A DNA stretch of 60,102 nucleotides from a virus (taxonomy: Duplodnaviria > Caudoviricetes): IMG/VR virus record IMGVR_UViG_3300009160_000047, positions 1-60,102 of that record. The stretch is one strand, 5' to 3'. Positions 23,058-45,900 of the stretch are shown here, piece by piece (within the stretch, counting starts at the first letter, position 1; every line of letters starts with the position of its first letter). Made by a program: the position numbers and the translations under genes. A model generated the notes under the pieces. That model had not been told where the DNA came from. It saw only the letters and a list, made by a program, of their open reading frames with translations, and ran no database searches.

Positions 23058-23058
23058 C

Positions 23059-23277
23059 ATGAAAACATCAGAACGCTTTGCCGTCAACGAATGGCTCTCA
23101 GAATACCCAAGCGATACGACCTTTGACGTGATCATGGACTTAATCCGTGATGATGATGAGTCGGTTATTCCTTGGGAATTAGTCGAACACTATCCTGCAG
23201 CAGACCTCATAGAAGTTATTTACAACACAAAAATTCACTTTGAAACAGTAACCAAATCAACCACTGAGGATAAATGA
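23059..23277 (+). CDS. Hypothetical acidic protein
   Basis: GGAGG RBS, ATG 23059. Confidence 0.55.
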   Translation: MKTSERFAVNEWLSEYPSDTTFDVIMDLIRDDDESVIPWELVEHYPAADLIEVIYNTKIHFETVTKSTTEDK

Positions 23278-23278
23278 A

Positions 23279-25005: not shown

Positions 25006-25136
25006 TTCAATACATCTTCATACTGACGGAGGAGGGCGACTTTGTAGCCGCCTATACCACCCGAGAGAAGGCCGAGCTGGAAGCCCTAGAATCACGGCTC
25101 CTCAACTGGCACATCATCGAAGCAAGGTTACGCTAG
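25002..25136 (+). CDS. Hypothetical protein (44 aa)
   Basis: GGAGG RBS and ATGA overlap; last gene of the plus-strand block. Confidence 0.45.
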   Translation: MIQYIFILTEEGDFVAAYTTREKAELEALESRLLNWHIIEARLR

Positions 25137-25950
25137 TGCCCATCGCTTTGATCAGGGACTGACCCGCTCGGAACAGTCCCACTCTTAGATGAGTATCGTT
25201 AAAGTCCTCGCCAACGACATCACTCATCCAGTAAGGCCAACCAATCTCTTTGGCTACTCTCTCACCAGTCCCACTCTCATCATTGTCTGTCACAAGGAAC
25301 CCGCTCTCTAGTGAGGAGGCGACCTTCTTCATATTCCCTGCGCTGAAGCAAACATGGATGTTGTACCTGCGCTTATAGGACTTTAGGACATGACGCACAG
25401 ACAAGGCCGTAGCGTAACCCTCGCAAAGAATGTGCAAGCCCTTGTTATCGAAGCAAAACTCTGCATCTGAGGTGCGCTGCCCAAACAAAAACTTCTTGCC
25501 GCCGGCCTCATCGATGACCTGACAACCCACCAATCTACCTGCGACACGCATTGGGATTAGTAAATAGTGGAGGCCATTGAGGACATAGATATTGCCTTCC
25601 TCTTCCTCAAAACCCTTGGCTTTTAGATATGGGTGGCGACCATAACCTGACTGCTTGAGCATGACCGCCGCCTTGGTAGCCGCTTCTCTTTGCATGAGGA
25701 GGCGATCATCATCTGCCTTGCGAGCAAGCTTGACGAACTTGTCTGAGTTGGTATTGTTACCATCGCTCTTCCATACGGACACCTCTACATCAGTAGCATG
25801 GTTCTGCACATAGCCGTGATCACCCATGAACTTGACGGCACCATTTCTTTTGCGTGGTTTATCCTGAGTTGGATATCTTTTCCACACCCCGACTGGCGGG
25901 TAATGATCGAGGAGGATGCCGTGTGCAGCACAAAAGTTTAGGAAGTCCAT
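25114..25950 (-). CDS. Toprim-domain DNA primase
   Basis: HPYL..KG, LIPM, CEGYATA, FSAGN and DND..G motifs. Confidence 0.8.
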   Translation of the reverse strand: MDFLNFCAAHGILLDHYPPVGVWKRYPTQDKPRKRNGAVKFMGDHGYVQNHATDVEVSVWKSDGNNTNSDKFVKLARKADDDRLLMQREAATKAAVMLKQSGYGRHPYLKAKGFEEEEGNIYVLNGLHYLLIPMRVAGRLVGCQVIDEAGGKKFLFGQRTSDAEFCFDNKGLHILCEGYATALSVRHVLKSYKRRYNIHVCFSAGNMKKVASSLESGFLVTDNDESGTGERVAKEIGWPYWMSDVVGEDFNDTHLRVGLFRAGQSLIKAMGTSVTLLR

Positions 25951-27437
25951 TAACGCTTACCTCTCTTGATCGCCCGAATGTAAGCCCGCTTCTTTGCTTC
26001 CACAAACTTAGTTACTTCCATGCTTGGCATGCTGACGTTGTCGCTCAGGTTCATAGGCCAAACCCCAAACTTATCTTTGTAAGTATGAGCCGCCCAACCT
26101 GGGGACTTGCCTTCGTTGGCTACAAACCATTGGAGTTGTGACCACCACACCTGTTTGTTGGCGCGCGACATCATTGCTAGCTCTTCCATTTCTCCTGGAA
26201 GCACAGACAAAACATTCTTTCTCTCTTTGACAAAGCCGCAATGCGAGCAGGACTCTGCATGCCGAGGCATATAGGCCTGACACTTGGGGCACTTAGCCTC
26301 CTGCTTTTCCTTCTCTGTCGGTTCCTTTTTTGCCTTCTCTTTGCCCTCGTCTAATGAATGAACGCCGTTCTCATAGACATCCTCCCAGTCCTCACGAAAA
26401 CGGAGGTAATTACCTGAATGATCAAGCCACACGGCATAAGGCTTATCGTCTGGGTTTGCCTGATTGCTTCGCATGACACGACCCATCTGCTGAATATGGG
26501 AAGACAAAGACTTGCTGAATGGGCGGGCTGATACGCCGATCATTACGTCAGGCACATCAAAACCTTTGGTCAGGATATCCGTGGCAATCAGGCCATGAAT
26601 CTCTGTATCAGGCTTGGCAAAGTCCTCGATGACCTGCTTCTTAAACTCGTCATCATCTTTGTAGCTGATCGAGATAAAGTTATAACCCTGCTCTGCGAAC
26701 TTACGCATAAGATCGGTGCCATGGTTTACGCCTGAGCAAAAGACAATCGTTTTGCGTGGGCGGTTAAAGATCTGATGTGTAAGCTTGATCCACTCTGTAA
26801 CGATGTCGCCTGTGATCTTCATGCCTCGATCAGTGGCTTCCTTCTGTGACCATTCACCGGCTACTTTCTTTGCGCCAGTCATGTCAATCTCTTTGGCAAC
26901 GAACACCTTCAGTGGAACCAACACACCCCGATCGACCAAATGTTTGGTGGTAACTGAGGAGACTACGTGATCATAGACCCGACCCAGTCCCTTGGTGAAA
27001 GGGGTGGCGGTCAGGCCAATGACCTTCACATCAGGATTGTTCTTGATGAACTCGATTGTTTGATCTCTGGTCTGGTGGCATTCATCCACGATCAAAAGCT
27101 GAAGGCCAGGAAAATCTCCACGCTTCTCTAACGTCTGGGCAGAGCAGACCTGAATGCTTTCGTAAGGTCTAAACCTCCAATGACCTGACTGTAATACGCC
27201 ATGCTCGATGCTGTATTTTTCAAGACGCTGACTGGTTTGATCGCACAGAACGATACGATCCAAGATCATTGCCGCCTTGTTACCCTTCTCTTTTGTGGCA
27301 CGTAGTAGCTCGATGGCCATCTCTGTTTTGCCTGCGCCTGTGGGTGCGTAAAGTATTTGACTACGTAGTCCTGCTGCAAATCCTTTGCGAAGACTATCCA
27401 AGATATGGGACTGGTAGTCCCTGAGTATTAGTGACAT
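25950..27437 (-). CDS. Superfamily 2 DNA helicase with C-terminal Zn finger
   Basis: LRDYQ, APTGAGKT, DECH, TATP, GFD.P, QQMGR..R; CPKC...CSHC. Confidence 0.9.
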   Translation of the reverse strand: MSLILRDYQSHILDSLRKGFAAGLRSQILYAPTGAGKTEMAIELLRATKEKGNKAAMILDRIVLCDQTSQRLEKYSIEHGVLQSGHWRFRPYESIQVCSAQTLEKRGDFPGLQLLIVDECHQTRDQTIEFIKNNPDVKVIGLTATPFTKGLGRVYDHVVSSVTTKHLVDRGVLVPLKVFVAKEIDMTGAKKVAGEWSQKEATDRGMKITGDIVTEWIKLTHQIFNRPRKTIVFCSGVNHGTDLMRKFAEQGYNFISISYKDDDEFKKQVIEDFAKPDTEIHGLIATDILTKGFDVPDVMIGVSARPFSKSLSSHIQQMGRVMRSNQANPDDKPYAVWLDHSGNYLRFREDWEDVYENGVHSLDEGKEKAKKEPTEKEKQEAKCPKCQAYMPRHAESCSHCGFVKERKNVLSVLPGEMEELAMMSRANKQVWWSQLQWFVANEGKSPGWAAHTYKDKFGVWPMNLSDNVSMPSMEVTKFVEAKKRAYIRAIKRGKR

Positions 27438-27483
27438 AAGAATTCCTCTACTGGGACACAAGCCCCCCAGCTTGGGCTATGGA

Positions 27484-28314
27484 TTACTTGGCTTTCAATT
27501 GCTTCTGCAAATAGACCACTTGCTTTTTAAGCTGAGCGTTCTCTGCTTGGAATTGATCACGGCTAATCTTCACAGAGTTCAGCTCAATCGTTAGTTGCCA
27601 GACCTCCTCTCGAAGCTCGGCAATTATTCTGCCGGCAAGATCAGGATCTGCTGAACCTTTGACGGCCAACTGATCGGATAGCTTCTCATTCTCTTGAACC
27701 AAGAAGTCGATAGCTTCCTGTTGCTTGCCGTCATCCACAGGTGTAGCAGGAGTAGCAGGTGTAGCAACGTCAAATGTTTTGACTGGCTTCTCAGGCTTGG
27801 TCACGCGAGTCTTAACTTCACCATCTTTGTTTACAAACTTAACCTTCTCGGGCACCTTACCTACACGCAACTTTGCCACCGTTACATGGGACACATCGCA
27901 GATCCGGCCAATCTCACGATTGCTCCACTCACTCCATTCAAAGTCTTCGATCAACTCTTTGGCATTGTTAAGCTTGTCTTGCAAAGTAGGGGGCAGACCG
28001 TGCAGATTGTTTGCAATCTTGCTGTACAGAATGGCATCACGCAATAAGCCATTGGTAACTTTGCACTTGATAGATGCTTTGCCAATCTTGCGTGTGGCGT
28101 GATAGCGGTGAAAGCCATCGGCTAACCAGTACTCTTTGCCATCAAAGAATGCGGTGACTGGACTGTATTCCACATCATCCTTCATCTTCTCAAAGATATC
28201 TTCGACATGACTCTCGTCAATCTTCAGTCGTGATTGTGTGCCGCCGCTAATGTTCAGCGCATCAAGAGACAAAGTCTTTACTGTAAATACCAGTTTGCTT
28301 GGGTCGTAATTCAT
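27484..28314 (-). CDS. ParB/Srx N-terminal domain protein with HTH and coiled coil
   Basis: LADGFHRY.A, N..HGLP, WSNREI.R.C.VSH.TV...R; C-terminal leucine zipper. Confidence 0.75.
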   Translation of the reverse strand: MNYDPSKLVFTVKTLSLDALNISGGTQSRLKIDESHVEDIFEKMKDDVEYSPVTAFFDGKEYWLADGFHRYHATRKIGKASIKCKVTNGLLRDAILYSKIANNLHGLPPTLQDKLNNAKELIEDFEWSEWSNREIGRICDVSHVTVAKLRVGKVPEKVKFVNKDGEVKTRVTKPEKPVKTFDVATPATPATPVDDGKQQEAIDFLVQENEKLSDQLAVKGSADPDLAGRIIAELREEVWQLTIELNSVKISRDQFQAENAQLKKQVVYLQKQLKAK

Positions 28315-28741: not shown

Positions 28742-29245
28742 TCACGCTACCCCTTTCAATAGTTCTTGCAGTTGTTTCAATTTCTGTGCACTGGTGGAGT
28801 TCTCTTGGATCTCTGCCTCGATCTCAAGTGCCACGTTCTCTAGCTCTGTGGCCATCGCCTTCATCTGTGCAGCCAACCCGTTGGCTTTCTCTGAAAGGCT
28901 GATCAATCTGTCCAAGTTGGATTGCTTGATCTGAGTTACTGGTTTGCTTGTAGCCATGGTTTTTTCCTTTGTTTCTTCTATAAATTTGTCGAATGTTGTT
29001 GTCTCTTTTACTTCTATGCGGATAAAAGATCCGCGCTCAGGCTCTTGGATAAGGCCTTGTCGTTTCAATGTGTCCAAGCAACCAATGATTGCCTTGGAGT
29101 CCCGCATGCTGTAGCCCAGTCTGCTTATCTCTGCAATGATCTGAGTAGAAGTCCATGCCTCAGATACAGGCACTGCTTCGTAGACCTTCTTGACTGGCGC
29201 ATTCAAGACGTTAAACATCTGCTTAAACCTAGTCTGACTTATCAT
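28742..29245 (-). CDS. Winged-helix plus coiled-coil protein
   Basis: KVYEAVP..E.W....I and GCL..L...GLI.E...G.F motifs. Confidence 0.6.
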   Translation of the reverse strand: MISQTRFKQMFNVLNAPVKKVYEAVPVSEAWTSTQIIAEISRLGYSMRDSKAIIGCLDTLKRQGLIQEPERGSFIRIEVKETTTFDKFIEETKEKTMATSKPVTQIKQSNLDRLISLSEKANGLAAQMKAMATELENVALEIEAEIQENSTSAQKLKQLQELLKGVA

Positions 29246-30866
29246 TTTTCATCTCCTTTATTTCTAAGTCTTGTTCAGCTCTTTCAAGTAAATATTTCCT
29301 CCAATCTTCGTGTTCTAAAACTTTTTGTATTTGTTCTCGGCTCCACAGGAACATGTGCCTATCCTCAAAACCATCTAAGACTTTGAACAACGTATCTTCA
29401 GGGAAGTTATATGGACTGGCGAATAAATCCATGTACCTGAACGAACCTGCTGAAATATCGTGATTCTCAAATGGCTTCTCTGGACGCTTCATGTGGCTAG
29501 TTGTAAACAGGTACTTGATACCTGACTCCACAAAGTTGGTAAGCACCTTGTAGGTTTCCACGTAGGGCATATGGAACAGAAAATCCCGACACAACATCAG
29601 GTCTGCCATGGGGTACTTGTCCTCTACCAAATTGGTATAGACAAACTTCATCTTTGGATTGTCTTTGTACTTCTCTTTAAGCTCTTCTATTAGAGCTTGC
29701 ACAATATCAGCACCAACATAATCTATGTCGGACTGCTCCAAGACCTTGGCCATCCAGTTCAGGTCGCCGCATGGCGCATCGAATACAGACTTAATCTCAA
29801 ACTGCTCGAACAACTTGGGCAATTCCTGACGCAATCGTTCTGTATGTTTCAGCGTAGATGACGGCCCACTAACTGTTTCACCAGAGCCCCAACCCTTCTT
29901 CTCAAAGATCTTTGTGAACTTTTCTTCCATGGTCTGCTGCTTATCCCAGTACAACCTTGATGCCCGACCCTTGGCTTTCTTATTAAAGTAGTCCACACCT
30001 GAGAAATCAATGTAGTCCTGAACAGATCTGACTGATCCCAACCCATAGATACCCATGTCTTTGCCATGGATCAAAGCCTCCAGTCTGTCTGTCGCACGTT
30101 GCTGCATGGTTGCCCAGTGCTCAGCACGTTTTGTAGTGACTTCCTTATCCCAATGTCTAGGACGTTCGCCGCCTTTTGATTTGGCATAAAGATGGTAGAT
30201 GGGCATGTCAGGCACATGGAAAATATCCCAACCATGCGTATACGCGCGCAACGCTATAGCTTGCTCTTCGCCATTGAAGTACATATAAGGATCGTATGGA
30301 ATCTCATATACAAACTTGCCTAGCGTGAACAGGCAACCTGCGCCTACGTGAACTCCAGGAATGATGTCGGTTGTGTCTACTGGAGAAGCAACAAACTTCA
30401 GCTTGGAATTCTTTGGATCAAAATCATCCGCAATAATGTGAACCGATGTGCCACGGAAGATGTGCTTGGTAACAATTCCATTCTCACGCTCGTATGAGTT
30501 TGGGTAACTGGACACAATGAACTTCGGGCTAATCTCGGCGCACTTCTCAGCCGCTTTGATGAATCTCTCATCCCAGTCCTGCTCAAATATCATGTGTGCA
30601 TCGATCTGGAAAAACCAATCCTCATCGTTGTACATGGACATGCAGACTGATCTCGCCCAACAGGCACCACGGGATTCGTGTGGGTTAACACCAAGGTAGC
30701 GCACATTCTTATGGTCAGGCGTGATCTTGATGCGCTTACCCAGTTCGCTCTGCTCCACCACTCCAAAGAATAAATCGTTTGGATATTTGGATTTCTTGAT
30801 GGCATCATTTATTGTGTGCCCCAATAGCACATCAGAGTAGGAGGCAATGCTTACAAAGATGCTCAT
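29229..30866 (-). CDS. GT60-like (GlcNAc) glycosyltransferase fused to a class I SAM methyltransferase
   Basis: IFVSIASY.D, SRGACWAR, QIDAHM.F...WD, F.GEE..LRA.THG.D, YGLG..RS; C-terminal SG.SS, FDAPCGD.NW, G.DIV, CRD...H. Confidence 0.8.
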   Translation of the reverse strand: MSIFVSIASYSDVLLGHTINDAIKKSKYPNDLFFGVVEQSELGKRIKITPDHKNVRYLGVNPHESRGACWARSVCMSMYNDEDWFFQIDAHMIFEQDWDERFIKAAEKCAEISPKFIVSSYPNSYERENGIVTKHIFRGTSVHIIADDFDPKNSKLKFVASPVDTTDIIPGVHVGAGCLFTLGKFVYEIPYDPYMYFNGEEQAIALRAYTHGWDIFHVPDMPIYHLYAKSKGGERPRHWDKEVTTKRAEHWATMQQRATDRLEALIHGKDMGIYGLGSVRSVQDYIDFSGVDYFNKKAKGRASRLYWDKQQTMEEKFTKIFEKKGWGSGETVSGPSSTLKHTERLRQELPKLFEQFEIKSVFDAPCGDLNWMAKVLEQSDIDYVGADIVQALIEELKEKYKDNPKMKFVYTNLVEDKYPMADLMLCRDFLFHMPYVETYKVLTNFVESGIKYLFTTSHMKRPEKPFENHDISAGSFRYMDLFASPYNFPEDTLFKVLDGFEDRHMFLWSREQIQKVLEHEDWRKYLLERAEQDLEIKEMKNDKSD

Positions 30867-32526: not shown

Positions 32527-33132
32527 CTAATAAAAACGCCCGAAATTAGGCTCTTTGTTGTATTTGTTGACGTAGTCTTCCCACGATACTGCAAAGTCTT
32601 CGCACGTAAACAAACTAATAAGTTGCTTGTAACCCAGGTAGTTTTGTGCATGCCCGTACTGGGTCTTGTCCACCATTGCTACGTAGTGCTCAGCAGTTGG
32701 AAGACCAAATGCATGCAAAGTTCTCACGGCAATTTTTAATGTGCCTTGTGATCCCGCTAAATCATCCACCAAAAGCAACGGCTTGCCAGTCACTCTGCCT
32801 TCGGTGAAATTCATCAGGCCGTATACCTTGCGTGATTTCTTAACCGACAACATAGGCTCACCAAGTACAGCCGACATCGCAAGCCCAAGCGGAACACCGG
32901 CATCCTCACAGGCAACGATCTGCACGTTTTTATCCGGCAGACCTTGAACCAGTAACTCGCCCGCAGTTAACAAAAACTTGGGATCGAACAGGCATCTGCG
33001 CAAATAGAACTGCCACCTATAACTCATGTTCGGGGCTTTCGCAGGAATGTCTGGAAGATGCGGCGGCACCCTGTAAATTCCCCTGTGGTCAATCTCTGAA
33101 CGCAAGTACTCCAGCTTCTCAAGATTTGTCAT
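32527..33132 (-). CDS. Type I phosphoribosyltransferase (orotate-PRT-like)
   Basis: PRPP-binding LLLVDDL.GS.GT, E.AGVPL and KKSRKVYG loop. Confidence 0.7.
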   Translation of the reverse strand: MTNLEKLEYLRSEIDHRGIYRVPPHLPDIPAKAPNMSYRWQFYLRRCLFDPKFLLTAGELLVQGLPDKNVQIVACEDAGVPLGLAMSAVLGEPMLSVKKSRKVYGLMNFTEGRVTGKPLLLVDDLAGSQGTLKIAVRTLHAFGLPTAEHYVAMVDKTQYGHAQNYLGYKQLISLFTCEDFAVSWEDYVNKYNKEPNFGRFY

Positions 33133-33600: not shown

Positions 33601-33833
33601 GCGTTCTCCTTTATGGCTTTGGCCAAGACATCAATCGATACAGAAATGTTATTGATTGCATCTGCAATGCTCTCTAAACCTTCTCTATGTACCTCTGCAA
33701 TTTCTTGCATACCTTCTTTATGCACAACACCAAGGGCTTCAATTGCACCCATAGAAGTCATTGCATCACCATTGCCTAAATAACAGGCAGCTTTAATAAT
33801 TGCATCAGCAATTTGGTTTCTATCTTCATTCAT
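33597..33833 (-). CDS. Hypothetical protein
   Basis: LG.GDA.T.MGAIEAL motif. Confidence 0.55.
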   Translation of the reverse strand: MNEDRNQIADAIIKAACYLGNGDAMTSMGAIEALGVVHKEGMQEIAEVHREGLESIADAINNISVSIDVLAKAIKENA

Positions 33834-33854
33834 AGTGGACTTTCTTCATGGTTA

Positions 33855-34154
33855 TCAGGGTTGAACTTGGGCACTTTTGTACCCTTGTCTTTTGGATTTG
33901 GAAATGGTGGAAACGGCCATGTCATCTACGTTCTCCGGTCTAGGACAATCTTCTGGCGGCACAACCACGCACCACACAGCTGCATACTGTTTTCTCGGAA
34001 CAGCTTCCCATCTATCAATGTAGGCATCAGGCATAGCGCGTATGATCTTTTTAATGTTCGCCTTATCACGCTTCACCGCCCACACGATCTGCTCTAACGT
34101 CATTCCATCACTGTTCGTTCTGAGTAATGCTCTAATCTCTTGCGTACAGTTCAT
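33855..34154 (-). CDS. Hypothetical wHTH-like protein
   Basis: IR.LL...DG.T..QI, MPD.YIDRW and AVW.VV..PE.CP.P motifs. Confidence 0.65.
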   Translation of the reverse strand: MNCTQEIRALLRTNSDGMTLEQIVWAVKRDKANIKKIIRAMPDAYIDRWEAVPRKQYAAVWCVVVPPEDCPRPENVDDMAVSTISKSKRQGYKSAQVQP

Positions 34155-34390
34155 TGACGTCTCATATCTTCTTTAAATACCGCCAGTGCTTCGTTCTGGA
34201 TATCACGCACAACATAGTCAGCCAGGAAGCCAATCATCTCTATGTCCTTGTGCGTTACAGAAACAAGTTCCATTGACTCAGCATAGTCTGGCTCAATCTT
34301 TAATCCATTCTCAGCAGAACCAATCTCAGCCGGCAAGTAATCCAGCGTACAGTCAAGCTCCACATCAGCTCTCGTAAATATATATCTCAT
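34151..34390 (-). CDS. Hypothetical protein, first gene of the leftward operon
   Basis: AGGAG RBS; L.C.L.Y.P.E.GS...G...EPDY motif. Confidence 0.6.
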   Translation of the reverse strand: MRYIFTRADVELDCTLDYLPAEIGSAENGLKIEPDYAESMELVSVTHKDIEMIGFLADYVVRDIQNEALAVFKEDMRRQ

Positions 34391-34416
34391 AATATCTCCT
34401 TGAAGTTGGGATGTGT

Positions 34417-34444
34417 ATATTACTGCAAAAAAGTACACTGTCAA
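34417..34444 (-). promoter_or_regulatory. Sigma70-type promoter
   Basis: TTGACA-16 bp-TAATAT upstream of 34390. Confidence 0.6.
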
Positions 34445-34452
34445 CAGGTATA

Positions 34453-35080
34453 AGAAAATAAATGTAGGTGCTACATTCTTGGTGGACTGCTAGGCTCTGT
34501 GGACATGGTTCTGCCTAGGGGAGAGGCGTTCTCCCTTTGGCATACTTCCACATTCTCGGAGCCACTGGCTGAGTATCTTGTGGGCTGATCTTCTTCTAAG
34601 TCCAATCAGCATCGAGCACTTTGCACAACTTAGTTGTGTCTAGCATGGCCGCTCGAACCTTCGCTGTAAGCCGCAGGACTTGAACCCACGGGCAACAAAG
34701 GCAATTCCCCCATATGCGCTTGCAACTTCTTTGCGCAATTTCACAACAGATAAGAACGTCGTAGGATTGGTGGACTGCGGTCTACGCCTTGCGGCCTCCA
34801 ACGCTTCCCTCATGCCAATCCAAAACCCGATAGAGTTCTGTCGCTAGTTGTCGTAGGAGGAGAGACTGGGACTGCTCACATGTAGCAGTGTTTTTCAAAA
34901 CATTTCGTCCACTCAGGAGTTGCCGGCGCTAACCCGACAAACAATCCCAGTCTCAAAAACAAAAAAGCCGTTTACAACTGCGTCCGGTCGGAGCCTTGCT
35001 TAATATCTCTCCCCACAGAAAGCATTAAGTAAAGCGGAACGCATGTGTAAACGGCCTCAATCATTGCCTCCGACAGCAAC
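34453..35080 (-). ncRNA. Candidate structured non-coding RNA cluster / leader
   Basis: No ORF of 60 aa or more; several nested stems including two perfect 10-bp closing helices; promoter upstream and terminator-like U-tracts. Confidence 0.55.
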
Positions 35081-35086
35081 AACGTG

Positions 35087-35116
35087 TTTATATCACAGAA
35101 TAAATTTACCTGTCAA
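35087..35116 (-). promoter_or_regulatory. Sigma70-type promoter reading into the structured region
   Basis: TTGACA-18 bp-TATAAA with TGn extension; -35 overlapped by the inverted repeat CTGTCA-N6-TGACAG (35110-35127). Confidence 0.55.
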
Positions 35117-35130
35117 CTAGGTGACAGTAT

Positions 35131-35168
35131 TAGGGTTTACCCACCCAAATGGTAATATTACCATTGCT
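35131..35168 (-). repeat. Dispersed two-palindrome element, copy 2 (inverted)
   Basis: Reverse complement reads AGCAATGGTAATATTACCATTTGGGTGGGTAAACCCTA. Confidence 0.9.
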
Positions 35169-35169
35169 A

Positions 35170-35973
35170 TTAGTCCCCGCAAAAGCAGGCAATACCCTCC
35201 TCAGTGGAGGCAAACATATCCATTTGCTCCGTGGCAAATTTCATCATCTGCGAATAGCTAGGGCGATCACTACGGAATGTGCCGCCTATGGCATGCTCCT
35301 GCTTTGCCCACCACAGGGCTCGATCTGGGTTATCCCGAATGATGCTAAGCACTTGGTTGGGGCCCTTAAGAAAGCACAGGTCACAGTTGCCAAGGTTGGT
35401 AACACCAGACTGGAACTTAAGCCCCAGGTCAAATGAGTTGGCCTTCCAAAATTCTTGTACATCGAGCTGGCTAAAGTTTGCATCAATCAAGGGGGTGCGG
35501 TTACCCTGCCTAAGCTTGGCAGCTCTGCGCTTTTCATCCGCCCTGATCCCAAGCATCTGCTCAAACTCTTCTACGCCCCTAGACAACATGTATTTCTGGA
35601 TGGGAATAACCTTTAGATCAGACGTACAAAAGCGCGCAACAGGGTTGGGCAGGTAGCTACGCTTGTTAATCAGGGCTGAGAACGGCTCACCATCCCGACT
35701 GGCTGTCTCGTAGTCCACCTCTTTCCAGCGATCCTTGGTCAGTTCAGCCGGCTGATATTCAAGCCAATGGATCTTGACGTTCCAGGCCTTTGCGCAATCA
35801 TTAACGAACTTAAGTGTGGCCTCATCCTCCTTACCAGTGTTGGCAAAGCAAACAATAGCTTCCTCGGGCAAGCTCATGTCGTGAGCCTCCAAGACCTTAT
35901 AAAGCATGAAGGCGGAGGTACGGCCACCCGAAAAGGATATGACCGTGGGCTCATCTATGTGGAAGGGATTCAT
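35170..35973 (-). CDS. PAPS-reductase-family (PP-loop) protein
   Basis: SFSGGRTS PP-loop, FANTGKE, RFCT..LK, GIRADE and GNC..CFLK. Confidence 0.8.
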   Translation of the reverse strand: MNPFHIDEPTVISFSGGRTSAFMLYKVLEAHDMSLPEEAIVCFANTGKEDEATLKFVNDCAKAWNVKIHWLEYQPAELTKDRWKEVDYETASRDGEPFSALINKRSYLPNPVARFCTSDLKVIPIQKYMLSRGVEEFEQMLGIRADEKRRAAKLRQGNRTPLIDANFSQLDVQEFWKANSFDLGLKFQSGVTNLGNCDLCFLKGPNQVLSIIRDNPDRALWWAKQEHAIGGTFRSDRPSYSQMMKFATEQMDMFASTEEGIACFCGD

Positions 35974-36072: not shown

Positions 36073-36357
36073 TCAGAGTTTGTTTAAAAAAACAATTGCT
36101 TCATCAACCGAATTAACAATAACCAAGGGCCCACCAGTCCACTCCATGAAGAACTTCTCCTCCGCGTCAGTCAACTTCCTAGCCGATGGAACCTTATTTC
36201 CATCCTTGACTTCCATCAAAATAGTCCTCCCTTGATAACCCACAAGCAAGTCAGGCAGTCCTCCGCCTTGGGTTACCACACGGACAGTAGCGCCGGCCTT
36301 ACGGAGGGCGCTCACTATCTCATTTTGATTGTCATCTATTCGGGCTGCGTATCTCAT
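36073..36357 (-). CDS. VRR-NUC-like / Holliday-junction-resolvase-type nuclease
   Basis: MRYAARID.NQ.EIV.ALR, G.PDLLVG, EVKDG and KLT..E..F; start set to ATG 36357. Confidence 0.75.
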   Translation of the reverse strand: MRYAARIDDNQNEIVSALRKAGATVRVVTQGGGLPDLLVGYQGRTILMEVKDGNKVPSARKLTDAEEKFFMEWTGGPLVIVNSVDEAIVFLNKL

Positions 36358-36364
36358 GAAAAAT

Positions 36365-36409
36365 ATTATAACAGGTAGTTGTTGACACTTGCAATATGTG
36401 TGGTATATT
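36365..36409. promoter_or_regulatory. Overlapping divergent sigma70 promoters
   Basis: Plus: TTGACA(36382)-16-TATATT with TGn extension; minus: TTGCAA(36394)-18-TATAAT. Confidence 0.6.
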
Positions 36410-36682: not shown

Positions 36683-36872
36683 TTGCGGCATACCAAACCC
36701 AGACGACTGGCACACCTGCGTACAGTATGAGAACAACCAGAAGGTAGAAAAACAAATCAAACTGTTGCAGATGCAAGTTGAAAATCTACATGAACGAATG
36801 TCAGGCGTGGAGCAAATGATTCAGGCCTACGGGAAAGAACTACTGTTTCGAGCACCTTGGAAAGAACAATGA
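36663..36872 (+). CDS. Small Zn-finger plus coiled-coil protein
   Basis: CPDC...H.C followed by a heptad pattern. Confidence 0.55.
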   Translation: MMLTCPDCGIPNPDDWHTCVQYENNQKVEKQIKLLQMQVENLHERMSGVEQMIQAYGKELLFRAPWKEQ

Positions 36873-37780
36873 AACTCACTAACAAATTTAATCTGCCTCA
36901 GACGTTTGTCAATGTAATCCAACGACCTACGTACTCAAAAGGTAAAGCACACATCTCTGCTACAGAGATCATTAACTCGCCACGTATTGTCCAGTTGAAA
37001 AAGAAACACTGGGAAGAGATCGAGCAAGACGCAAGCGAGATGGTGTGGTCACTGTTCGGCTCTGCTGTACACAACATCTTGGAACACGGCAAGGACGATC
37101 ATCACATTGTTGAAGAGCGTCTGCACCTGGAGTTTGATGGTTGGAAGATTTCCGGCGCCATCGATCTACAGGAAGTAGAACCAAACGGCACAATCTCAAT
37201 CAGCGATTACAAAGTTACCGGTGCGTGGGCTGTAATGAATGAGAAGGAAGATTGGCACCGCCAGCTCAACATCTATGCGTGGATGGTAGAGAAGGTCAAG
37301 AAGGTACCAGTCGGTAAGCTTCAGATCATTGCGATCATTCGTGACTGGTCTGCCCGTGATGCCAGCACCAAGGAAGGTTATCCACAATCACCAGTGGCCA
37401 CAATTGATATCCCACTCTGGTCATTCGAAGACCGTGAGGCTTATGTTTCCCTGCGCATCGATGACCATGGCGCGGCACTCTTTGAGATGGAAACAGACGG
37501 CGAGATAACTGACTGCACATCTGAAGAGATGTGGGAAAAGAAAACAACGTATGCATTGAAGAAAAATGCAAATGTTCGAGCAACCAGTGTTCATCCAACA
37601 CTGGTGGAAGCAGAAGATGCACTGGCGAAAGCTGTCGGTGCAGCAAAGAAGAACGAATCCTTTTCAATAGAGATTCGCCAAGGAGAAAGAACGCGATGCA
37701 AAGGCTATTGCCAAGTGTCGCAGTTCTGCAAACAGTATCAAACTTACTTAACCAAAGAGGAAGAAAATGTCAGTTCATAA
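36869..37780 (+). CDS. PD-(D/E)XK exonuclease (RecE/Cas4-like)
   Basis: G.AVH..LE, E.R, SG.ID, DYK, QLN.Y and C-terminal RC..YC....FC. Confidence 0.8.
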   Translation: MKLTNKFNLPQTFVNVIQRPTYSKGKAHISATEIINSPRIVQLKKKHWEEIEQDASEMVWSLFGSAVHNILEHGKDDHHIVEERLHLEFDGWKISGAIDLQEVEPNGTISISDYKVTGAWAVMNEKEDWHRQLNIYAWMVEKVKKVPVGKLQIIAIIRDWSARDASTKEGYPQSPVATIDIPLWSFEDREAYVSLRIDDHGAALFEMETDGEITDCTSEEMWEKKTTYALKKNANVRATSVHPTLVEAEDALAKAVGAAKKNESFSIEIRQGERTRCKGYCQVSQFCKQYQTYLTKEEENVSS

Positions 37781-38477
37781 AAAGCTAATGCAAGCTCGGA
37801 TTAAACTCCAAGCTACAGAGATGAAGAAGTCAGGCCTGAATAAGTTCGCCGGCTACTCATATTTTGAATTGGGAGACTTTGTTCCACCCATCCAAAAGAT
37901 CTTTAATGATCTTGGCCTATGCGGCGTGGTGTCGTTCAGCACCGAGTACGCACAGCTATGCATTACAGACGTAGAAGACGGCACAGTCATTGTGATCACC
38001 TCACCCATGGCAGAGGCCAATCTGAAGGGCGCACACCCCATCCAAAACCTAGGCGCTGTCGAGAGTTACCAACGCCGTTACCTTTGGATGACTGCCATGG
38101 AGATAGTCGAGCATGACGTTATCGACTCTGCTCCTGCGGCTGAACCAAAGCCCGCACCTAAGCCAGAGCCTAAGCCTGAGCCTAAGCCTGAGCCTAAGCC
38201 CGCACCCAAGCCGCCGGTTAAGATGCAAGGTGGCGAAGGTCCTTGGCAACTAAAGGTAACCACCGAACCAGGCGCAGAAGTAGGCGACTGGATTGGGATC
38301 GTAGTGGACGCTGCCCGCCATGGTCTTGCTCAGGCGGGATCGGAGAAGGACGTAATGGATCTATTCAAAATTAACCGAGGTATCTTTGACAAGCTCAAAG
38401 AGTTCTCAGTCGATGACCACGCCAATTTAATGGCAGATTTCAAAACCAAAAAAGACACACTGAAAGGAAACGTGTAA
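37767..38477 (+). CDS. erf: ERF-family single-strand annealing protein
   Basis: K...N.F..Y.Y.EL.D and Q..G...SY.RRY; Pro/Glu/Lys linker. Confidence 0.8.
   Translation: MSVHKKLMQARIKLQATEMKKSGLNKFAGYSYFELGDFVPPIQKIFNDLGLCGVVSFSTEYAQLCITDVEDGTVIVITSPMAEANLKGAHPIQNLGAVESYQRRYLWMTAMEIVEHDVIDSAPAAEPKPAPKPEPKPEPKPEPKPAPKPPVKMQGGEGPWQLKVTTEPGAEVGDWIGIVVDAARHGLAQAGSEKDVMDLFKINRGIFDKLKEFSVDDHANLMADFKTKKDTLKGNV
38142..38213 (+). repeat. 12-bp tandem repeat encoding a PKPE/PKPA linker
   Basis: Units such as CCTAAGCCTGAG, about six copies. Confidence 0.85.
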
Positions 38478-39654: not shown

Positions 39655-39923
39655 ACAACACACTGACGGCCAAACATAGGGATCATCTAGCCAATGTAAA
39701 GTCTTTGCCTTGCTCTGTCTGTGATCAACCAGGCCCTAGTGATGCCCACCATGTAAAGCAGGGCTTGCAGTACACCTGCGTAGCCCTGTGTAAAGACTGC
39801 CATCAGGGCAGCTTCATGGGATGGCACGGCCAGAAGCGGGCGTGGGCTATTAGAAAGATGGACGAGATCGATGCACTCAACGTCACCATTGAGCGCCTCT
39901 TAAATCTGAGCCGTTTCTCTTAG
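39651..39923 (+). CDS. HNH-like Zn-binding nuclease (DUF968/Ref-like)
   Basis: LPCSVC....AHH and LC..CH.G..G.HG. Confidence 0.65.
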   Translation: MNNTLTAKHRDHLANVKSLPCSVCDQPGPSDAHHVKQGLQYTCVALCKDCHQGSFMGWHGQKRAWAIRKMDEIDALNVTIERLLNLSRFS

Positions 39924-42900
39924 CTTCTTAAGATTAATTCCCTTAAGCATCTTCTCTTCAGAGTCTCGCAACTGTTTGATGCGGGACTCTTTTACATCTG
40001 AAGGCAGATTAGAGTTGGTGATCATACTAATCGATTTACGGATCGTACTCAGCTGAGTATTGATCGTATTGACCATCGGCGCCAATCCCAAGCGGGCACG
40101 AACCTTCTCATCCTTGATGTAATCTTTGATGTCTTCAGGGTTGCGCTGCTTCAGATCTGTCAGCGTATTAGCCGCACGATCAACCTCTTCCTTCAAAGCA
40201 AAGAAGTCTTTCTTCAAGCCAGACTCATACTCTTTGGTAATAAATCCACTGGCATTAGGAATCGTGGCCAACGCATCCTGCATCGAGATCGATGGACGTG
40301 GCGTATTGGGGCTGGTGATGTTCCACAGGAAAGGGTTGGTTGCATACAACACCAAGCCACCGGCAGAGCCAAACATTCCACGAATAAAATGATCGACTGC
40401 AATCGGAGAAACTAAGTTTGATCGACCCAAGACCTTGGCCAACTCGGATGTACTATCCTCAAACTGGCGTTCCAACTCTTTCTTTTTCTGGTATGTACCA
40501 ATCAAAGGTTTCTGCTGGAAGAAGTCATAGTTAATTCCAATTTCTACCAAAGGCTTGATAGCCTGTGGGACTGGCGTAGGACTCAGAACAGAAGAGGCTA
40601 ACAAAGACTTCAATGACGCACGGAACTTGGCACCATCAGAGTAGCCCTTGTCTGTCAGGATCATGTAGGTGTGCTCAGCCACAACCTTGGGCAAGGCATA
40701 CAGATCGGCGCGCAGAGGGATAGACATACCAGTGCCAGGAATCATCAACAGACGATCACGGGTAGGCGTAGGCTTCTTCAGATAGTCCTCATCATCGCCG
40801 TTCATCATTGCGTACAGAACTGACAAGGTAAAGACCGAAGCCGTAGTGTTAAACAAAACCTTATAAGCCGCATCACGCTGGGTAGGTGATGTACCTACCC
40901 CCGTTATGGTGCGGTACGCCACATTCTGAGCCGTAAGGTATGCGTTAAAGAACGGAATTACTTGGCCGGCAAGGTTCAACATCTTGCTACTACCACGGCG
41001 GCGCACGTTAAAGATCTCGAACGCTTTCTCAAGAGCCTCTGCTTGGGATAGGCCTTGATCTCTAGCGGCGGTATAGGTAGCCTGACGCACAGCATTATCA
41101 GAAGCCATGGCAAAGTGGCCAAGCTTATCTTTAACCTTACCCCACAAACCCTTTGCCGGCTTCAAGCCTGCGGCAATCTCAGTATCAAGGCGAACCATGG
41201 CCGAACTAAAGTCACGCACACCCACAACACCAAAGTTCTTCAGCTCTTCGTGAGCCGTACTCTTGCCGCGTAAGGTCTGGATGAATTCTTTAACGGCGCG
41301 GAAAGGAATGGTTAATGCAAACTGAGGCTTTAAGCCGGATGAGAACATCGCAGCAAACGAATCCTGCGGCACCTGAGACACGGCGAATAAAGGATTCAAG
41401 ACCACGGAGTTACGCAATATGTCGGATAGCTTGGCTGCCCAACGGATGGTAGGAATGGAGACAGACTCCAAGCCCTGGAAGGCCTGCATGAACATGGGGT
41501 CAGCCATGTCATAGTAGCTCTCTTGCCCATCTTTCCAGACACGAACAACGTTATCACCGTCCTTCATGCTCTCTACTTTCTTGGCCAGTCCAACAGACTC
41601 AGCCGTAGTAGCAAGGGACAAGGCAGAACGATTGCGCACGGAACGATTGACGGCGTATTGCGTCCAACGAACCATGTTGTCAAAGATGTCGTTAACAGGC
41701 TTGGCAGATCCTTTTAGGCGGCGCTCTTTAGCCTGCACCTGCAAGCTACGCATGAACTCTTTGGGACCCTTACCCTCTTCAAGCTGATCCTCACGATAGA
41801 ATGGTACATAGTCTGCGTTGCTCAGAAGGAACTCTGCTTCCTCCTCAGTCCACAATCCAGACTCAACCAGTTTATCAACAGCGTTGCCACGGATGCCGTT
41901 CCAGATCTTCACAGCATCATTCAGCTCAGGCATCAGCTCAAACTGAGTCATGCCTCCACGGATCTGAGCGTCATCCATATGGATGTACTTTTCCTTCTGC
42001 CGCATATTGGAGGCCTTCTCGCTAAGAGCGCTGGCCTTGACGGGATTACCCTTGGCACGCTCCTCGGCGGCGGCATCACGAAGCTCTTGAACCTGAGCCT
42101 CTAATTGATTGTTGAACTCAATTAAAGACTTTGTGCGCTTAGCCTCAAAAGCCGTATGGGCGGCAAGCTCGATCTGAGCTTTGTCCAATCCATACTTGGC
42201 ACCAATCTCATCCAGCTTCTGCGACAAGGTAATGATGTTGTTCTTATCCTCAACACCCTCCCACTTGTGCAACTCTTTGTTGTACTTGATGTCGCCCATC
42301 CGCAAGAACAGATTGGCAATAGCATCAGAGTGGAACGTCTGGCTCAAACTTGTGTTCAACAATAAGCCAATCTTTTCCTCTTGACCTATCGAACTGGCCA
42401 TGATTTCACGGCGAATCTGGTTGTTCAGCGCGGCATCGCTAGAGAAAGCCCATGTCTGAATCTGATCAGAGAAGCGGCGGAATCCATCACGGGCAGCTTC
42501 AGCCGTAGCCTTTGGATTGTCCTTAGCGTTATCCCATGACTGCTTAATCTTCTCTGCATAACCTGGCTCTGGTGGCTTAACGTCACGACCCATACCGGAG
42601 AGAATCTCCATGGCCTGCTGACCCACAGAAGTTGGGGTACCAGCCCCCTTGAATAAAGACTGTTGGAATGGCGCTTGAGGTTTAGATGGTTTGGCCGGAG
42701 CTTTAGGCTTAGGTGCTCCTAGTTGAACACCTTGCGCCTTCATGGCCGTATCAATATCTTTAACATCAATGTCAAGAATTTCATTGGTAGTCTTCATCAG
42801 ACGATCAAGCGCAGACTCAAACTCTGGACTGATACCAAGCATTCTGCGAACAACTTCTACAATCTTGTCGAATGCAGTCTTATCGCCAACCTTAATCGTA

Positions 42901-45900
42901 GACAGCCACTTTTGGAAGTCTCTATCTTCTAAGCCCCAAGCCAACAACTCATCTGGGCTTTCAAGGTTGTTTGTTTGATCCTTGTAGACCTTCATCATGG
43001 ACTCAGGCAAAGTCTTGTTTTTAACTTGCTTGTTAAATTCAGCAACAACAGTTCTAAAAAGACTGTTAAGTTCTTTGACCGCAGGATGTGTGGCTGGCAG
43101 AAAATGGTTCTGCAAACGTGTTGCCGTATGCATGAACTCATGCAGCACAGTCTCATAATTCATGCCCGATGGGTAGCCTAGCTGATTGTCTAAAACAGGT
43201 ACACCATTCAGATCAATCCTGATTTGCGTACCCTTGGCATCTTTACCCGCTAAAAATGAAGCAACGCCTTGAGCTCTATAAAGTTTTTTGCTACGACTAT
43301 CGCCGCCTTGAACTTCAAATGTAAATTCAACGCCTTGCTTCTCAAGAGCCCGAACAACATTCAAAGCCTTCTGAGCAAAGTATTTCTCCGCATCATTGCG
43401 AGCGTTTCTGACAGTCCACTGACCCATCTCTATAAATGACTTACCAGTAAGCTCATCTTGAATGCGCCGCGCCTCAGGGGTCACGACAATATTTGATGGG
43501 CCCTTGTTGGCTGAGTAAAGAAACTCTTCCCTTGGGGCAAACTCAACATTCTTAGCCAACACAAAGCGGCCTATCTGAATGGCGTCGTCGGCGGCTACCA
43601 CGGGCCGCTTGGTTGCTCGGTCATAGAAGTATGAATGACGCAACGGATCAAAGCTAACCTGTGACCATGACTTATCTTTCAATAAGCGCTGAACCATTGC
43701 ATATGCTTCTTTAGGTGTAATGTTGACCCAGTTACCTTCCATCGTTTGCTGGGGTGATTTGTTACCTTGGGGCGTTACATTGCCTTCCTTGCTAATCGTC
43801 GGCTCAGCCTGAGTGGCCACCTTCATGGCAGCCTTTTCATTACGGATAGAAAACTTTACATTCTGTATACGGGCAACACTGGAATAACTGATGGGTGATT
43901 TAGGATTATTTTCTGGATGGATGGCAACAACACTGCCCGTCATGCCAAGAGCTTTAGAACGGTCAAGCGCTTTAATATCCATACGCAAACCAACCGGCGT
44001 ACCATCAGCAATTGGCGCATTTATTTTAGGTAGCTGGTTAGACTGCAGCACTTCCTTCATGTCAGCCGTAGCCATGGGTGGCTCAGGGTTTGGAATCGTT
44101 TCAATAGGCATGTAAGCATCTACATACTCATCATATTGTTTTTTGGTAATACGGCCCGCTTGTAATTCACGGGCAGCCAACACAACTTGTTGATTGCGGT
44201 TTTCTTTTAGTTTAAAGCCTTCTGGAGGCTTAAGCTCAGGCGGAGCTTTGCTCCCTGCTGGTTTGGCAGTCGTTTCGGCAGGTGTCTGCTTTTGAGGCTT
44301 CTCTTCTTTTACTTCTTTTGTTCCCGCTGTCTCTTTACCTCCTCCAGCAGTTCCAGTCTCTCCTTCGGTGGAAGTTTCTCCAGCAGCTTGATCAATTCTT
44401 GCTTGTTCATCTATAGCCTCCTGTATCAGAATGTTAATTTCTTCGGTAGACAAATATCTATCAATAAGTCTCAGCACCTCATCATGTCGCAAGTTGGCCT
44501 GCTGAATAATCTGCTGACTCTGGAACGGCATGTTCTGGTTCGTGCGCAACAAATTACGGATGTACTCAGTTGCTTGGTACTCCCTATCTGAAGCGCCCAC
44601 CGCATCTTCTCTCGCACTAATTTGAGCACCAAGATGAAGATTAGGGGGTAGGAATTCATTAAGCAAGCCATCGGCAACAATGTCGTCTAAGCTGGCACCA
44701 CCAGTATTGCTGATCAGCTTCTTGTCTGCATCACTGTCCTTATCGCCAAACTCGGATAGCTCAGCCGGATCAAGACGGCCAGCCAAGATCCTGCGCAGGT
44801 TCGTACCGCTACGCTTTGCATGGAAGATCTGACTGCGGATCTCTTTCTCTTGTTCTTTAAGAGCTTTAATAGTTGCGCGGTCTTCTTCTTTAGTCTCTTG
44901 ATCTATTGGAGCCTTAGCCTTCTGACCAGGAATATTCTCATACGCCACAGGGCCAGGTGGGGGCTCTAAGTCCTCCTCAACTGGAGGTACTTCTTCTTCA
45001 GTTTTGGCTTCTTGCTTAACAGCCTCAACCAATCCCTCTTGCTCCAAAATCTTACGCTTGGCAAGTTCATTGGCCAAAGGGTCTGGACTATAGACAGTGT
45101 TTTGAATCTCTTTGATACGCTTTTTCTTAGCCGTCTCTGCCGCCTTAATCTCATCAGCCTGACGCTTACGAGTGGCACCAAGCATTTCCTGATTGGTTGT
45201 GGCAGGACTTGCAAAGCCAGCCATCTTACTCATAGCAGTAGGCTTAGCAGGCGTGATCTCAGCCGGCGCCTCTTCAATAACCTGTGGTTGTTGCTCAGCA
45301 AACTGATCCAGCAGGCGCTGCTTCATAATCTGATTGGCAACAGGATCATTGCTGTAGACAGTATTATTGATCTCTTTGATCTGATCTTGGATCTGCTTTT
45401 GGCGAGCTTTCTCAGCCGCAGCCTGTTCACGTTGTTGCTGTTTAACGGCGGCTTGCTGATCGGCACGAACCTGACCCATCATCTGCAAGTTACCACCGGC
45501 AGGCGTAGCAAAGCCCTGCATAGAGCGAGCACGCTCCTGAGCATCAGCCATGCGTTGCTCTTCTGCCATCTGCTGCGCCAAGCGTCTTTGCTCATCGGCT
45601 TGGATCGCTTCTTCTCTCATCGCCAAAGCACGATTAGCATCCATCCCTTGCGGAGGTGCTGAAAAAATAGGCAATGGTAATGTTTCCATTGGGGTGGGTA
45701 AACCCTTAGATTCATCGATTGGTTGTGGTATCGCAGGCTTACCAGCTAAACCTCTAGCCGCAGCACCACCAAGACCGCCAATTGTTGCGGCACCAGCAAA
45801 TGCTTCTTTGTATTCTCTATAAGCATCTTCCGTATCAAGCGGTAAGCCGGCCTGATAGCGCTCAGCCATCTGCTCCAAAACCTCGGTAGGAGCTTCAGCA

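Follow-up and report, generated by a model that had tools for sequence, protein, structure and literature searches.

A candidate non-coding RNA operon with a conserved 365-nucleotide folded RNA in a family of lake-water phages

Large RNAs with many helices and invariant unpaired bases are rare, and those of known function are mostly ribozymes or core cellular machines. GOLLD and ROOL are large many-helix RNAs of unknown function that occur in phages and in environmental sequence from lakes and rumen, sometimes beside transfer RNA (tRNA) genes with which they are perhaps co-transcribed (PMC5737381). The CI RNA of phage P4 is cut from an untranslated transcript and terminates transcription by pairing with seqA (upstream) and seqC (downstream) (PMC4825925). 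In plasmid ColE1, an rG stretch in RNA II pairs with a dC stretch of the template, and phage T4 origins use R-loops (PMC4412123). Here we describe a gene-free stretch in a Caudoviricetes virus genome (IMG/VR record IMGVR_UViG_3300009160_000047), whose whole length of 60,102 nucleotides (nt) was analysed and is called the window. We propose, with a probability of about 0.55, that the stretch is a non-coding RNA operon of a ~60-kb lake-water phage family, transcribed leftward from a promoter at 35116-35087. Alignments and predicted folds show three independently conserved folded modules in it, namely module a, module c and a 365-nt RNA of 17 helices.

The 365-nt RNA, on the minus strand of the window, is by its alignment a conserved folded RNA, and it appears to be the main product of the array. 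Homologues were gathered by pattern scans and nhmmer and were aligned with MAFFT. RNAalifold on 20 sequences gave 72 base pairs, 40 of them with compensatory changes, and the curated structure, on an alignment of 34 sequences, has 89 pairs in 17 helices. These 89 pairs were 90.6% paired, compared with 78.3% after column shuffles and 40-44% when the partners were slid, and the covariation score of 0.424 compared with 0.198 for shuffled columns (reached in 0 of 500 shuffles) and 0.09-0.12 for slid partners. Changes on both sides were found in 60 of the 89 pairs, spread over the whole length of the RNA; all pairs were compensated in helices 1, 9, 11, 13, 14 and 17 and in the single-pair helix 5, as were all but one in helix 3. 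There were 369 G-U cells and 60 A-C cells in the alignment, an excess that places the constraint on the minus strand of the window. The invariant unpaired blocks include CUAUCGGGUU, UACNACGUUC, GAAG, UAGAC...GAAAG, GGCUCC and AGGCA.

The homologues come from viral or metagenome contigs without exception. Synteny of the neighbouring PAPS-reductase gene yielded 80 relatives, of which only L013 had the RNA downstream, covering its 3' two-thirds, and thus the RNA is not tied to that gene. The L013 alignment showed conserved blocks separated by compensated stems, and pattern scans derived from these blocks, together with nhmmer, gave 26 distinct homologues. A sharper pattern returned 54 viral contigs with 4-kb flanks, all 54 confirmed by nhmmer and 50 full length, which hold 43 distinct sequences with the window counted. 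Among the 119 matches listed from a metagenome pattern scan, 96 were true homologues (82 full length, 59 distinct, 42 new) and 23 were chance matches. Two exact-pattern scans of 185,579 bacterial and archaeal species genomes (one each) gave no true homologue, since the first returned 0 matches and the three matches of the second were all due to chance (nhmmer negative, coding-like). As far as exact patterns tell, the RNA appears to belong to phages of aquatic, mostly lake, communities. Lake viromes and metagenomes contain it in abundance, Rfam 15 does not include it, and within the reach of the searches it is confined to phages.

A sequence-only reading of the window had described the stretch as an array of structured RNAs, and all its words and coordinates match the sequence read directly. 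Its claim that the region is free of open reading frames (ORFs) and is the largest gap holds: no ORF of at least 60 amino acids (aa) lies within 34445-35169, and the stretch tops the gaps of a greedy gene list, the runner-up being 221 nt at 23058-23278. Insertions and deletions among homologues are not multiples of three, again as for a non-coding region. The whole region folds better than shuffled sequence, with -229.2 kcal/mol (z = -5.0) on the minus strand and -205.4 kcal/mol (z = -3.9) on the plus strand (20 shuffles each). With 200 shuffles each, the z value was -5.4 for module a (-50.7 kcal/mol; 0 of 200 shuffles as good), -3.8 for module c and -3.7 for the 3' domain of the 365-nt RNA with the terminal hairpin. 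The proposal that structured non-coding RNAs form an array on the minus strand, led by a promoter of their own, is supported; its division changes. The sequence-only reading had listed the pair GGATTGG (34764-34770) and CCAATCC (34815-34821), a long nested hairpin, T-loop-like words and a 12-mer repeat (TTGGTGGACTGC at 34479 and 34767) as separate items; the two 7-mers and both copies of the 12-mer are present at these positions, but all four items are parts of the one 365-nt RNA.

Rfam gave no match at its gathering score over the window or 13 homologous loci. At E <=10, only three chance matches to microRNA or small Cajal-body RNA models, of at most 19.4 bits, fell within 34300-35250, and the Rfam matches overall were chance ones to microRNA, small nucleolar RNA or bacterial small RNA (sRNA) models, apart from genuine tRNAs in neighbouring loci. 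No tRNA or transfer-messenger RNA (tmRNA) was detected by ARAGORN in the window; the RNA of 12 homologous loci and that of the 54 loci were likewise free of them. The literature that was covered (titles, abstracts and passages of three papers) held no description fitting this RNA. On these comparisons the 365-nt RNA is a new RNA family, and modules a and c are two further undescribed motifs. Three identities were tried and rejected: tRNA or tmRNA (ARAGORN and Rfam negative), a group I or group II intron (no Rfam match, and the upstream neighbour is a promoter and a U-tailed hairpin, not an exon), and a known riboswitch class (no aptamer model match).

Like GOLLD and ROOL (PMC5737381), the 365-nt RNA is large, has many helices and occurs in phages and environmental sequence. 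tRNA genes stand beside it in only a few loci, namely 2 of the 54 and also L084, L099 and L234. Unlike GOLLD and ROOL, it matches no Rfam model, is shorter, stands behind a pseudoknotted U-tailed hairpin, and bears a direct repeat whose variation follows that of the 3' flank of the RNA. It could be a stable, compact RNA acting alone as a scaffold, a decoy or a ribozyme-like RNA, as GOLLD and ROOL might, with its fold coupled to the 3' junction, and we hold this tentatively, at a little short of even odds. The RNA is a good candidate for structural study.

Some parts of the 365-nt RNA recall tRNA. It has a canonical T-arm, G-UUCAAGU-C, and UCCACCA words that resemble a tRNA 3' end. Of the two T-loop-like words in the sequence-only reading, only the first (GGTTCAAGTCC, minus strand, inside 34671-34691) is conserved in relatives. 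Unlike in tRNA, the T-arm (34691-34671) is followed by CUUACAGCG... and not by an acceptor strand with CCA, the CCACCA words are base-paired inside helices, and the T-loop is replaced in about half of the homologues: the canonical word was found in 17 of the 34 aligned and 36 of 85 distinct sequences, the others having shorter or GNRA-like loops. This pattern would suit a swappable tertiary-contact module better than tRNA mimicry. The T-loop pattern also matched five tail-fibre-like coding stretches and the unrelated locus L089, where the match (L089:560-760) lies in AT-rich intergenic sequence upstream of a sigma-factor-like ORF; no tRNA (ARAGORN) and no similarity to the large RNA (nhmmer) were found at L089.

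Upstream of the 365-nt RNA, module a is predicted to fold into a 5' hairpin and a long hairpin with the basal stem GGCCGUUUACA/UGUAAACGGC and the tail U6GU5. The paired words that the sequence-only reading had noted here, GCCGTTTACA (34967-34976) and TGTAAACGGC (35046-35055), are both in place. CUCCGAC (34987-34993), a bulge on the 3' side of the long hairpin, is the reverse complement of the loop word GUCGGAG (35068-35074) and pairs with it, and this pairing is kept by compensatory change. Relatives have the same layout directly upstream of the large RNA. When word pairs were sought by script in 46 distinct modules, 24 had a loop-bulge pair of 7-8 base pairs (bp) at a constant place, with 13 different words; in 22 of the 24 the pair precedes the basal stem by 10-14 nt and the return strand of that stem by 9-12 nt, and in the other two the call of the basal stem was misplaced. 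Six of the 46 are of another type with a fixed 8-bp pair, GGCUUGGU/ACCAAGCC, two have a pair of at least 7 bp elsewhere, three have chance-level 6-mers only, and in 11 the script did not find the basal stem (the pair is visible by eye in 5 of these 11). Each single word pair is weak, since 0-11 of 100 shuffles equal its length; the loop-bulge pairing is nevertheless real, as its constant position and many compensated words show. Seven relatives have a large RNA 97-99.5% identical to that of the window, and in three of them the word is another, compensated one (GUAGGAA and GUAGUGA by script, GUCGUAG in L281 by eye); thus the pair evolves fast. Such a fast-changing, always-compensated pairing looks like a specificity determinant. 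No link was found between the module a words and the core of the direct repeat; among close relatives the words vary and the core is constant.

In relatives, the U-tract of module a is only ~20-35 nt away from the large RNA, a distance too short to hold another promoter, and we infer that the large RNA is made by read-through of the module a hairpin. Module a is therefore best seen, with somewhat better than even confidence, as a candidate leaky terminator or attenuator in which the lineage-specific loop-bulge pairing would set the read-through into the large RNA. As side observations, an alternative 5' module of ~150 nt replaces module a in L257, L253, L255, L283, L275, L247, L267, L249 and L297; its conserved blocks are AACGG(N)UUGGUAACCCGUUGUAG, GAGCGGGCUUCGUCAAAGCU and UAUGCGGCAACCAAGCCUAAAGCUCGU, and no Rfam match was found in the loci scanned.

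The C4 RNA of phage P1, like the array, belongs to an untranslated transcript with short complementary boxes near a termination signal, ahead of replication genes. The array also shares with P4 CI (PMC4825925) an untranslated, promoter-driven phage transcript ahead of replication genes and short complementary boxes beside a termination signal on the same transcript, which in the array is module a. By analogy, module a may work in a comparable way. An immunity RNA of this type would be the long hairpin, processed to a small RNA that uses its bulge to recognise the loop word of nascent transcripts in trans and so causes early termination, giving lineage-specific control of the downstream early and replication genes. 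The fast but always compensated change of the pairing words, even among near-identical relatives, and the U-tract at the end of the module a hairpin are what such an RNA would show, and P4 CI RNA supplies the precedent of a cut RNA that terminates through seqA and seqC (PMC4825925). However, one loop-bulge pair that co-varies was found in module a and no second target box, the pairing can form within one molecule and may be purely intramolecular, so that trans action is not required, and no lysogeny genes were found among 42 window proteins scanned against PHROGs. Neither is there anything like the 365-nt RNA in the P4 CI and P1 C4 systems. The kinship with P1 C4, c4-a1b1 and P4 CI that the sequence-only reading had suggested finds no Rfam match, even at E <=10, in the window region or the 13 homologous loci, and membership of the C4 or c4-a1b1 family was rejected for want of a covariance-model match. 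An immunity RNA is thus unlikely, and the attenuator remains our preferred reading of module a.

Module c is a junction motif of ~93 nt, whose outer stem GAGACUGGGA/UCCCAGUCUC encloses a hairpin with the invariant 11-mer GGGUUAGCGCC (34925-34935) and which also holds the conserved CACUGCU(N)AUGUGAGC. The paired words GAGACTGGGA (34862-34871) and TCCCAGTCTC (34945-34954) are present as the sequence-only reading described them. Four of the six hairpin pairs show two-sided changes, in 7-13 of 22 aligned copies. Between 25 distinct copies the outer stem varies with its pairing kept by compensation, as seen by eye (the automatic alignment missed it). The 11-mer was found in 50 of 303 fetched loci and lies on the strand of the large RNA in the loci compared (L253, L257 and L259); some loci with it have no large RNA, and some have two copies. 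In most relatives, module c stands upstream of the module a promoter and not between module a and the large RNA. Tandem module c-like units were seen in some relatives (L253:3687-3803, L257:4280-4396, L300 and L248/L277), where a second unit with the outer stem GCAUGGGG...CCCCAGCC directly follows the first, so that these phages carry arrays of the ~100-nt motif upstream of the module a promoter. The 122 nt of module c are replaced by 28 other letters in a contig from RNA-library run X4 (34834-34957) that connects the 5' end of the large RNA with module a; it is a natural variant without module c at that position.

The leftward promoter that the sequence-only reading had placed in front of the stretch, TTGACA-N18-TATAAA, is there; a general promoter scan missed it because it accepts only -10 hexamers with T in the sixth place. 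A match of at least 10/12 to TTGACA-N16-18-TATAAT occurs on the RNA strand in 33 of 48 distinct upstream regions, at a conserved position 160-285 nt upstream of the large RNA, compared with 1 of 48 on the opposite strand. At the other end of the RNA, the hairpin at 34461-34477 is also present as described. It is limited to close relatives of the window, and a terminator scan did not list it because its stem has just two G-C pairs. A promoter-like site for the downstream small ORFs, the first of which starts at 34390, is likewise kept in close relatives. Among the other lineages, the end of the RNA and the start of an ORF are at most 25 nt apart in 30 of the 54 loci; at least 13 of these downstream ORFs form one cluster, of which four were scanned against Pfam and all four are HNH endonucleases, and one further downstream ORF carries a DUF5710 domain. 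At the 3' junction lie, in most relatives, the ribosome-binding sequences of the following gene and, in the window, a terminator arm.

This junction is repeated inside the 365-nt RNA. In every lineage, a stretch of 6-13 nt directly after the invariant internal GGCUCC(G/A) is the same as the stretch of that length after the 3' (U/C)CACCA, with words that differ from lineage to lineage (AGAAUGU, GGAUGUG, GGGGUGUGUAAAU, GGAAGU, GGGAGU, CAGGGAA, CAGUGUG, UCGUGGAAG, UCAGUGGUA, UCGGUGGA, CUGAUA and UAGUGGAA, among others) and cores that are mostly rich in purines and G. The variable internal columns 318-321 have their highest mutual information, up to 1.0 in 43 sequences, with their own 3' counterparts. 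Over 56 distinct pairs of internal copy and junction, the longest shared word averaged 6.62 nt compared with 4.23 nt when permuted (reached in 0 of 1000 permutations), and 49 of the 56 share a word of at least 6 nt. The helix GUGGA/UCCAC is 81% paired. Where the copies mismatch, an internal G stands against a junction A 71 times and the reverse twice; the internal copy is paired there (CUCCG with a G-run, GUGG with CCAC), which can explain the bias. In the window, the repeat word CCRAGAAUGURG has two exact copies and four with one mismatch (at 1765, 12201, 21779 and 41573), six compared with 1.1 expected. The idea that the repeat is a genome-wide promoter-like motif was rejected, as only the two exact copies occur in the window.

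We consider three readings of the repeat. By analogy with ColE1, the partner of the internal copy at the junction may be an antisense RNA or the template DNA strand; one lineage-specific factor may bind both copies, the internal one mimicking the junction; or the copies may be alternative strands of a switch whose other strand is unrecognised. In the window, the sequence shows that the internal copy could also form 7 bp, one of them G-U, with the 3' arm of the terminal hairpin and would then be an antiterminator; other lineages do not have this hairpin. We found no precedent that would explain, without RNA-DNA contact, a direct repeat co-varying with the 3' flank of the RNA itself. Either this repeat or the module a pairing could reveal a new phage control of early gene expression or replication.

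In our preferred reading, the single-stranded linker of the large RNA repeats the junction sequence, and the GUGG after the linker pairs with the CCAC just before the junction, so that the RNA fold could control exposure of the junction. From its position, the stretch could plausibly act as a switch on the replication operon. A giant riboswitch-like leader acting in cis, in which the ~0.6-kb RNA senses a ligand, a protein or a tRNA and has no role as a free RNA, would account for the relatives that have no terminator before the next ORF, with its start within 25 nt in 30 of the 54 loci, and around the CCAC element the repeat looks like a Shine-Dalgarno sequence paired with an anti-anti-Shine-Dalgarno copy. 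However, the downstream gene varies by lineage (HNH endonuclease, DUF5710 protein and others), in the lineage of the window the RNA is followed by a terminator of its own and a new promoter, and Rfam holds no matching known aptamer. We consider such a leader distinctly unlikely.

The repeat also bears on a replication primer or origin RNA, as known from ColE1 RNA II and the phage T4 origins, where a structured transcript from a promoter makes a persistent RNA-DNA hybrid at which DNA synthesis starts; in the stretch, the internal copy would anneal to the template at the 3' junction and anchor such a hybrid ahead of the helicase and primase genes. Because the internal copy equals the non-template DNA at the junction, it complements the template strand, and its covariation would be explained without a third RNA partner. 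The mostly purine- and G-rich cores fit such a primer, as does the arrangement seen in the window and in relatives, where the replication genes are preceded by a promoter and ~0.5-0.64 kb of folded RNA that is not translated. The pairing of the rG stretch with the template dC stretch is essential to the ColE1 hybrid, and T4 oriF and oriG use R-loops (PMC4412123); the array would share with ColE1 RNA II and the T4 origin transcripts a structured, untranslated transcript of ~0.5 kb behind a strong promoter, and with the rG/dC contact a purine-rich RNA segment that matches a downstream site. Unlike ColE1, no antisense RNA I is evident (1 of 48 opposite-strand regions is promoter-like, and no Rfam RNAI match was found), and unlike both ColE1 and T4, there is no sequence similarity and a terminator follows the RNA in the window. 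The hairpin of the window lineage uses the junction copy as an arm, so that transcription may stop there, the junction is the translation start region of a gene in 30 of the 54 loci, there is no composition switch at the stretch, and 17 helices with many invariant unpaired bases seem more elaborate than priming needs. The origin alternative of the sequence-only reading, in this primer version, is somewhat supported by the direct repeat that co-varies at the 3' junction; on balance we think it improbable.

A bolder version joins these features into one claim, which we regard as a long shot: the 365-nt RNA would be a new class of functional RNA, a core with a guide-like copy of its own 3' flank that is seated on the template strand at the junction, where it would prime or license replication as a self-anchoring primer or act catalytically, while the fast-evolving module a pair would give each phage lineage private control over it. 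At the opposite end, the stretch might act as DNA only (origin repeats, an attachment or packaging site) or be a mobile element or intron with a functionless RNA fold. Direct repeats ~75 nt apart on a segment with inverted GUGGA/UCCAC ends superficially look like a target duplication with terminal inverted repeats, and HNH endonuclease genes adjoin the RNA in at least 13 of the 54 loci (the one cluster, four members Pfam-scanned). But the ratio of G-U to A-C cells indicates constraint on one transcribed strand, the compensated pairs extend along the whole length, the repeat is lineage-specific yet matched within each lineage, which a single ancient insertion would not give, and neither flanking exons nor a group I or group II intron match were found. 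A purely DNA-level or mobile element is very hard to reconcile with these results.

Several points weigh against the proposed RNA operon and the role of its large RNA. Two pieces of the large RNA, its T-loop hairpin (z = -1.3) and its 5' domain (z = -0.5), fold no better than 200 shuffles; their support comes from covariation instead of fold energy. Helices 2, 8, 12, 15 and 16 hardly vary and are neither supported nor contradicted, and the 3' domain is ambiguous, as RNAalifold offers another closing helix that pairs the G-run with CCACC. The shuffle statistics of the covariation and the permutation statistics of the repeat ignore the kinship of the sequences. The GUGG/CCAC helix accounts for the invariant end of the repeat and not for the identity of its variable 5-9 nt, and no complementary partner of these variable nucleotides was found within the RNA, 4 kb to either side or in the whole window; searches for a third partner by exact words (-700 to +400 nt and 4 kb either side), mutual information (43 sequences) and a pairing-column scan (85 sequences) gave nothing consistent. 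The terminator and new promoter between the RNA and the next gene mean that translational coupling cannot be its role in the window. Contigs from four RNA-library runs (four studies) overlie the stretch, with a 1400-nt contig of run X1 over 33826-34891 and short contigs of X2, X4 and X9 within 34659-35009; the contigs show neither strand nor ends, and since the runs were picked with this very stretch, they cannot rank expression, the parts they leave uncovered are uninformative, and they count solely as not contradicting transcription.

Table 1. Positions of the RNA features and of the genes around them in the window.
Feature	Position	Strand	Basis or remark
Sigma-70-like promoter of the RNA operon, TTGACA-N18-TATAAA	35087..35116	minus	score 11/12
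Module a, 5' hairpin, loop GUCGGAG at 35068-35074	35061..35082	minus	predicted fold
Module a, long hairpin followed by UUUUUUGUUUUU (terminator-like)	34955..35058	minus	predicted fold
Module c, ~93-nt junction motif	34862..34954	minus	predicted fold, z = -3.8
Large structured RNA, 365 nt	34480..34844	minus	alignment and structure counts
5' domain of large RNA	34743-34844	minus	followed by a small hairpin
Central multi-helix domain of large RNA		minus	closed by UGGGG/CUCCG
T-arm-like hairpin, CCGUGGG-UUCAAGU-CCUGCGG	34671..34691	minus	helices 9 and 10; stands on a 9-bp helix
3' domain of large RNA		minus	ends in UCCACCA
Internal repeat copy, CCGAGAAUGUGG	34548..34559	minus	just 3' of invariant GGCUCC
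3'-junction repeat copy, CCAAGAAUGUAG	34471..34482	minus	overlaps 5' arm of terminal hairpin
Terminal hairpin AAUGUAG-CAC-CUACAUU and U-rich tail	34450..34477	minus	folds; weak, terminator-like
Promoter-like site for downstream small ORFs, TTGACA-N16-TAATAT	34417..34444	minus	separate; 10/12
Structural block	from ~17 kb, leftward		PHROG/Pfam
Major head protein	9084-9992		structural block
Portal	12888-15350		structural block
Large terminase	15359-16864		structural block
Rightward gene block	18-25 kb		
Early and replication block	from primase to small ORFs (up to 34390)		leftward
Primase	25114-25950		leftward block
Helicase	25950-27461		leftward block
ParB-like protein	27484-28314		leftward block
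Glycosyl- and methyltransferase	29229-30866	minus	Pfam and PHROG
Phosphoribosyltransferase	32527-33132		leftward block
Many small ORFs	up to 34390		leftward block, then the gene-free stretch
PAPS-reductase-like gene	35170-35973		beyond the gene-free stretch
Hjc-like nuclease	36073-36357		
Divergent promoters	~36365-36409		promoter scan
Exonuclease	36857-37780		rightward recombination block
Erf	37767-38477	plus	rightward recombination block

The virus record is linear and complete or nearly so (CheckV completeness estimate 95), and the gene-free stretch is present in it once. Table 1 includes the gene map of the window from PHROG and Pfam scans. The genomic place of the RNA is constant, between divergent recombination genes and replication genes. 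In the 54 loci, the genes near the RNA include an exonuclease (31), an Hjc-like nuclease (25), Erf (20), PAPS reductase (14) and a helicase (13). No gene for an RNA-binding protein, a reverse transcriptase or another obvious partner recurs directly beside the RNA. A blastn search of 50,697 phage records gave no DNA-level match to the stretch, and the PAPS-reductase gene has only relatives of <60% identity in that collection.

Three other features of the window were noted. The gene at 29229-30866 (minus strand) encodes a glycosyltransferase of the N-acetylglucosamine type fused to a methyltransferase domain, by Pfam and PHROG, and together with the nearby PAPS-reductase-like, ParB-like and phosphoribosyltransferase genes it may form a set for DNA or nucleotide modification. 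The ORF at 39900-46628 (minus strand) of 2242 aa has only weak PHROG matches, of unknown function, and lies beside virion and ejection-protein genes; its product is probably a giant internal virion protein. The Erf-like annealing protein has a run of PKPEPK-type repeats in the middle of the protein.

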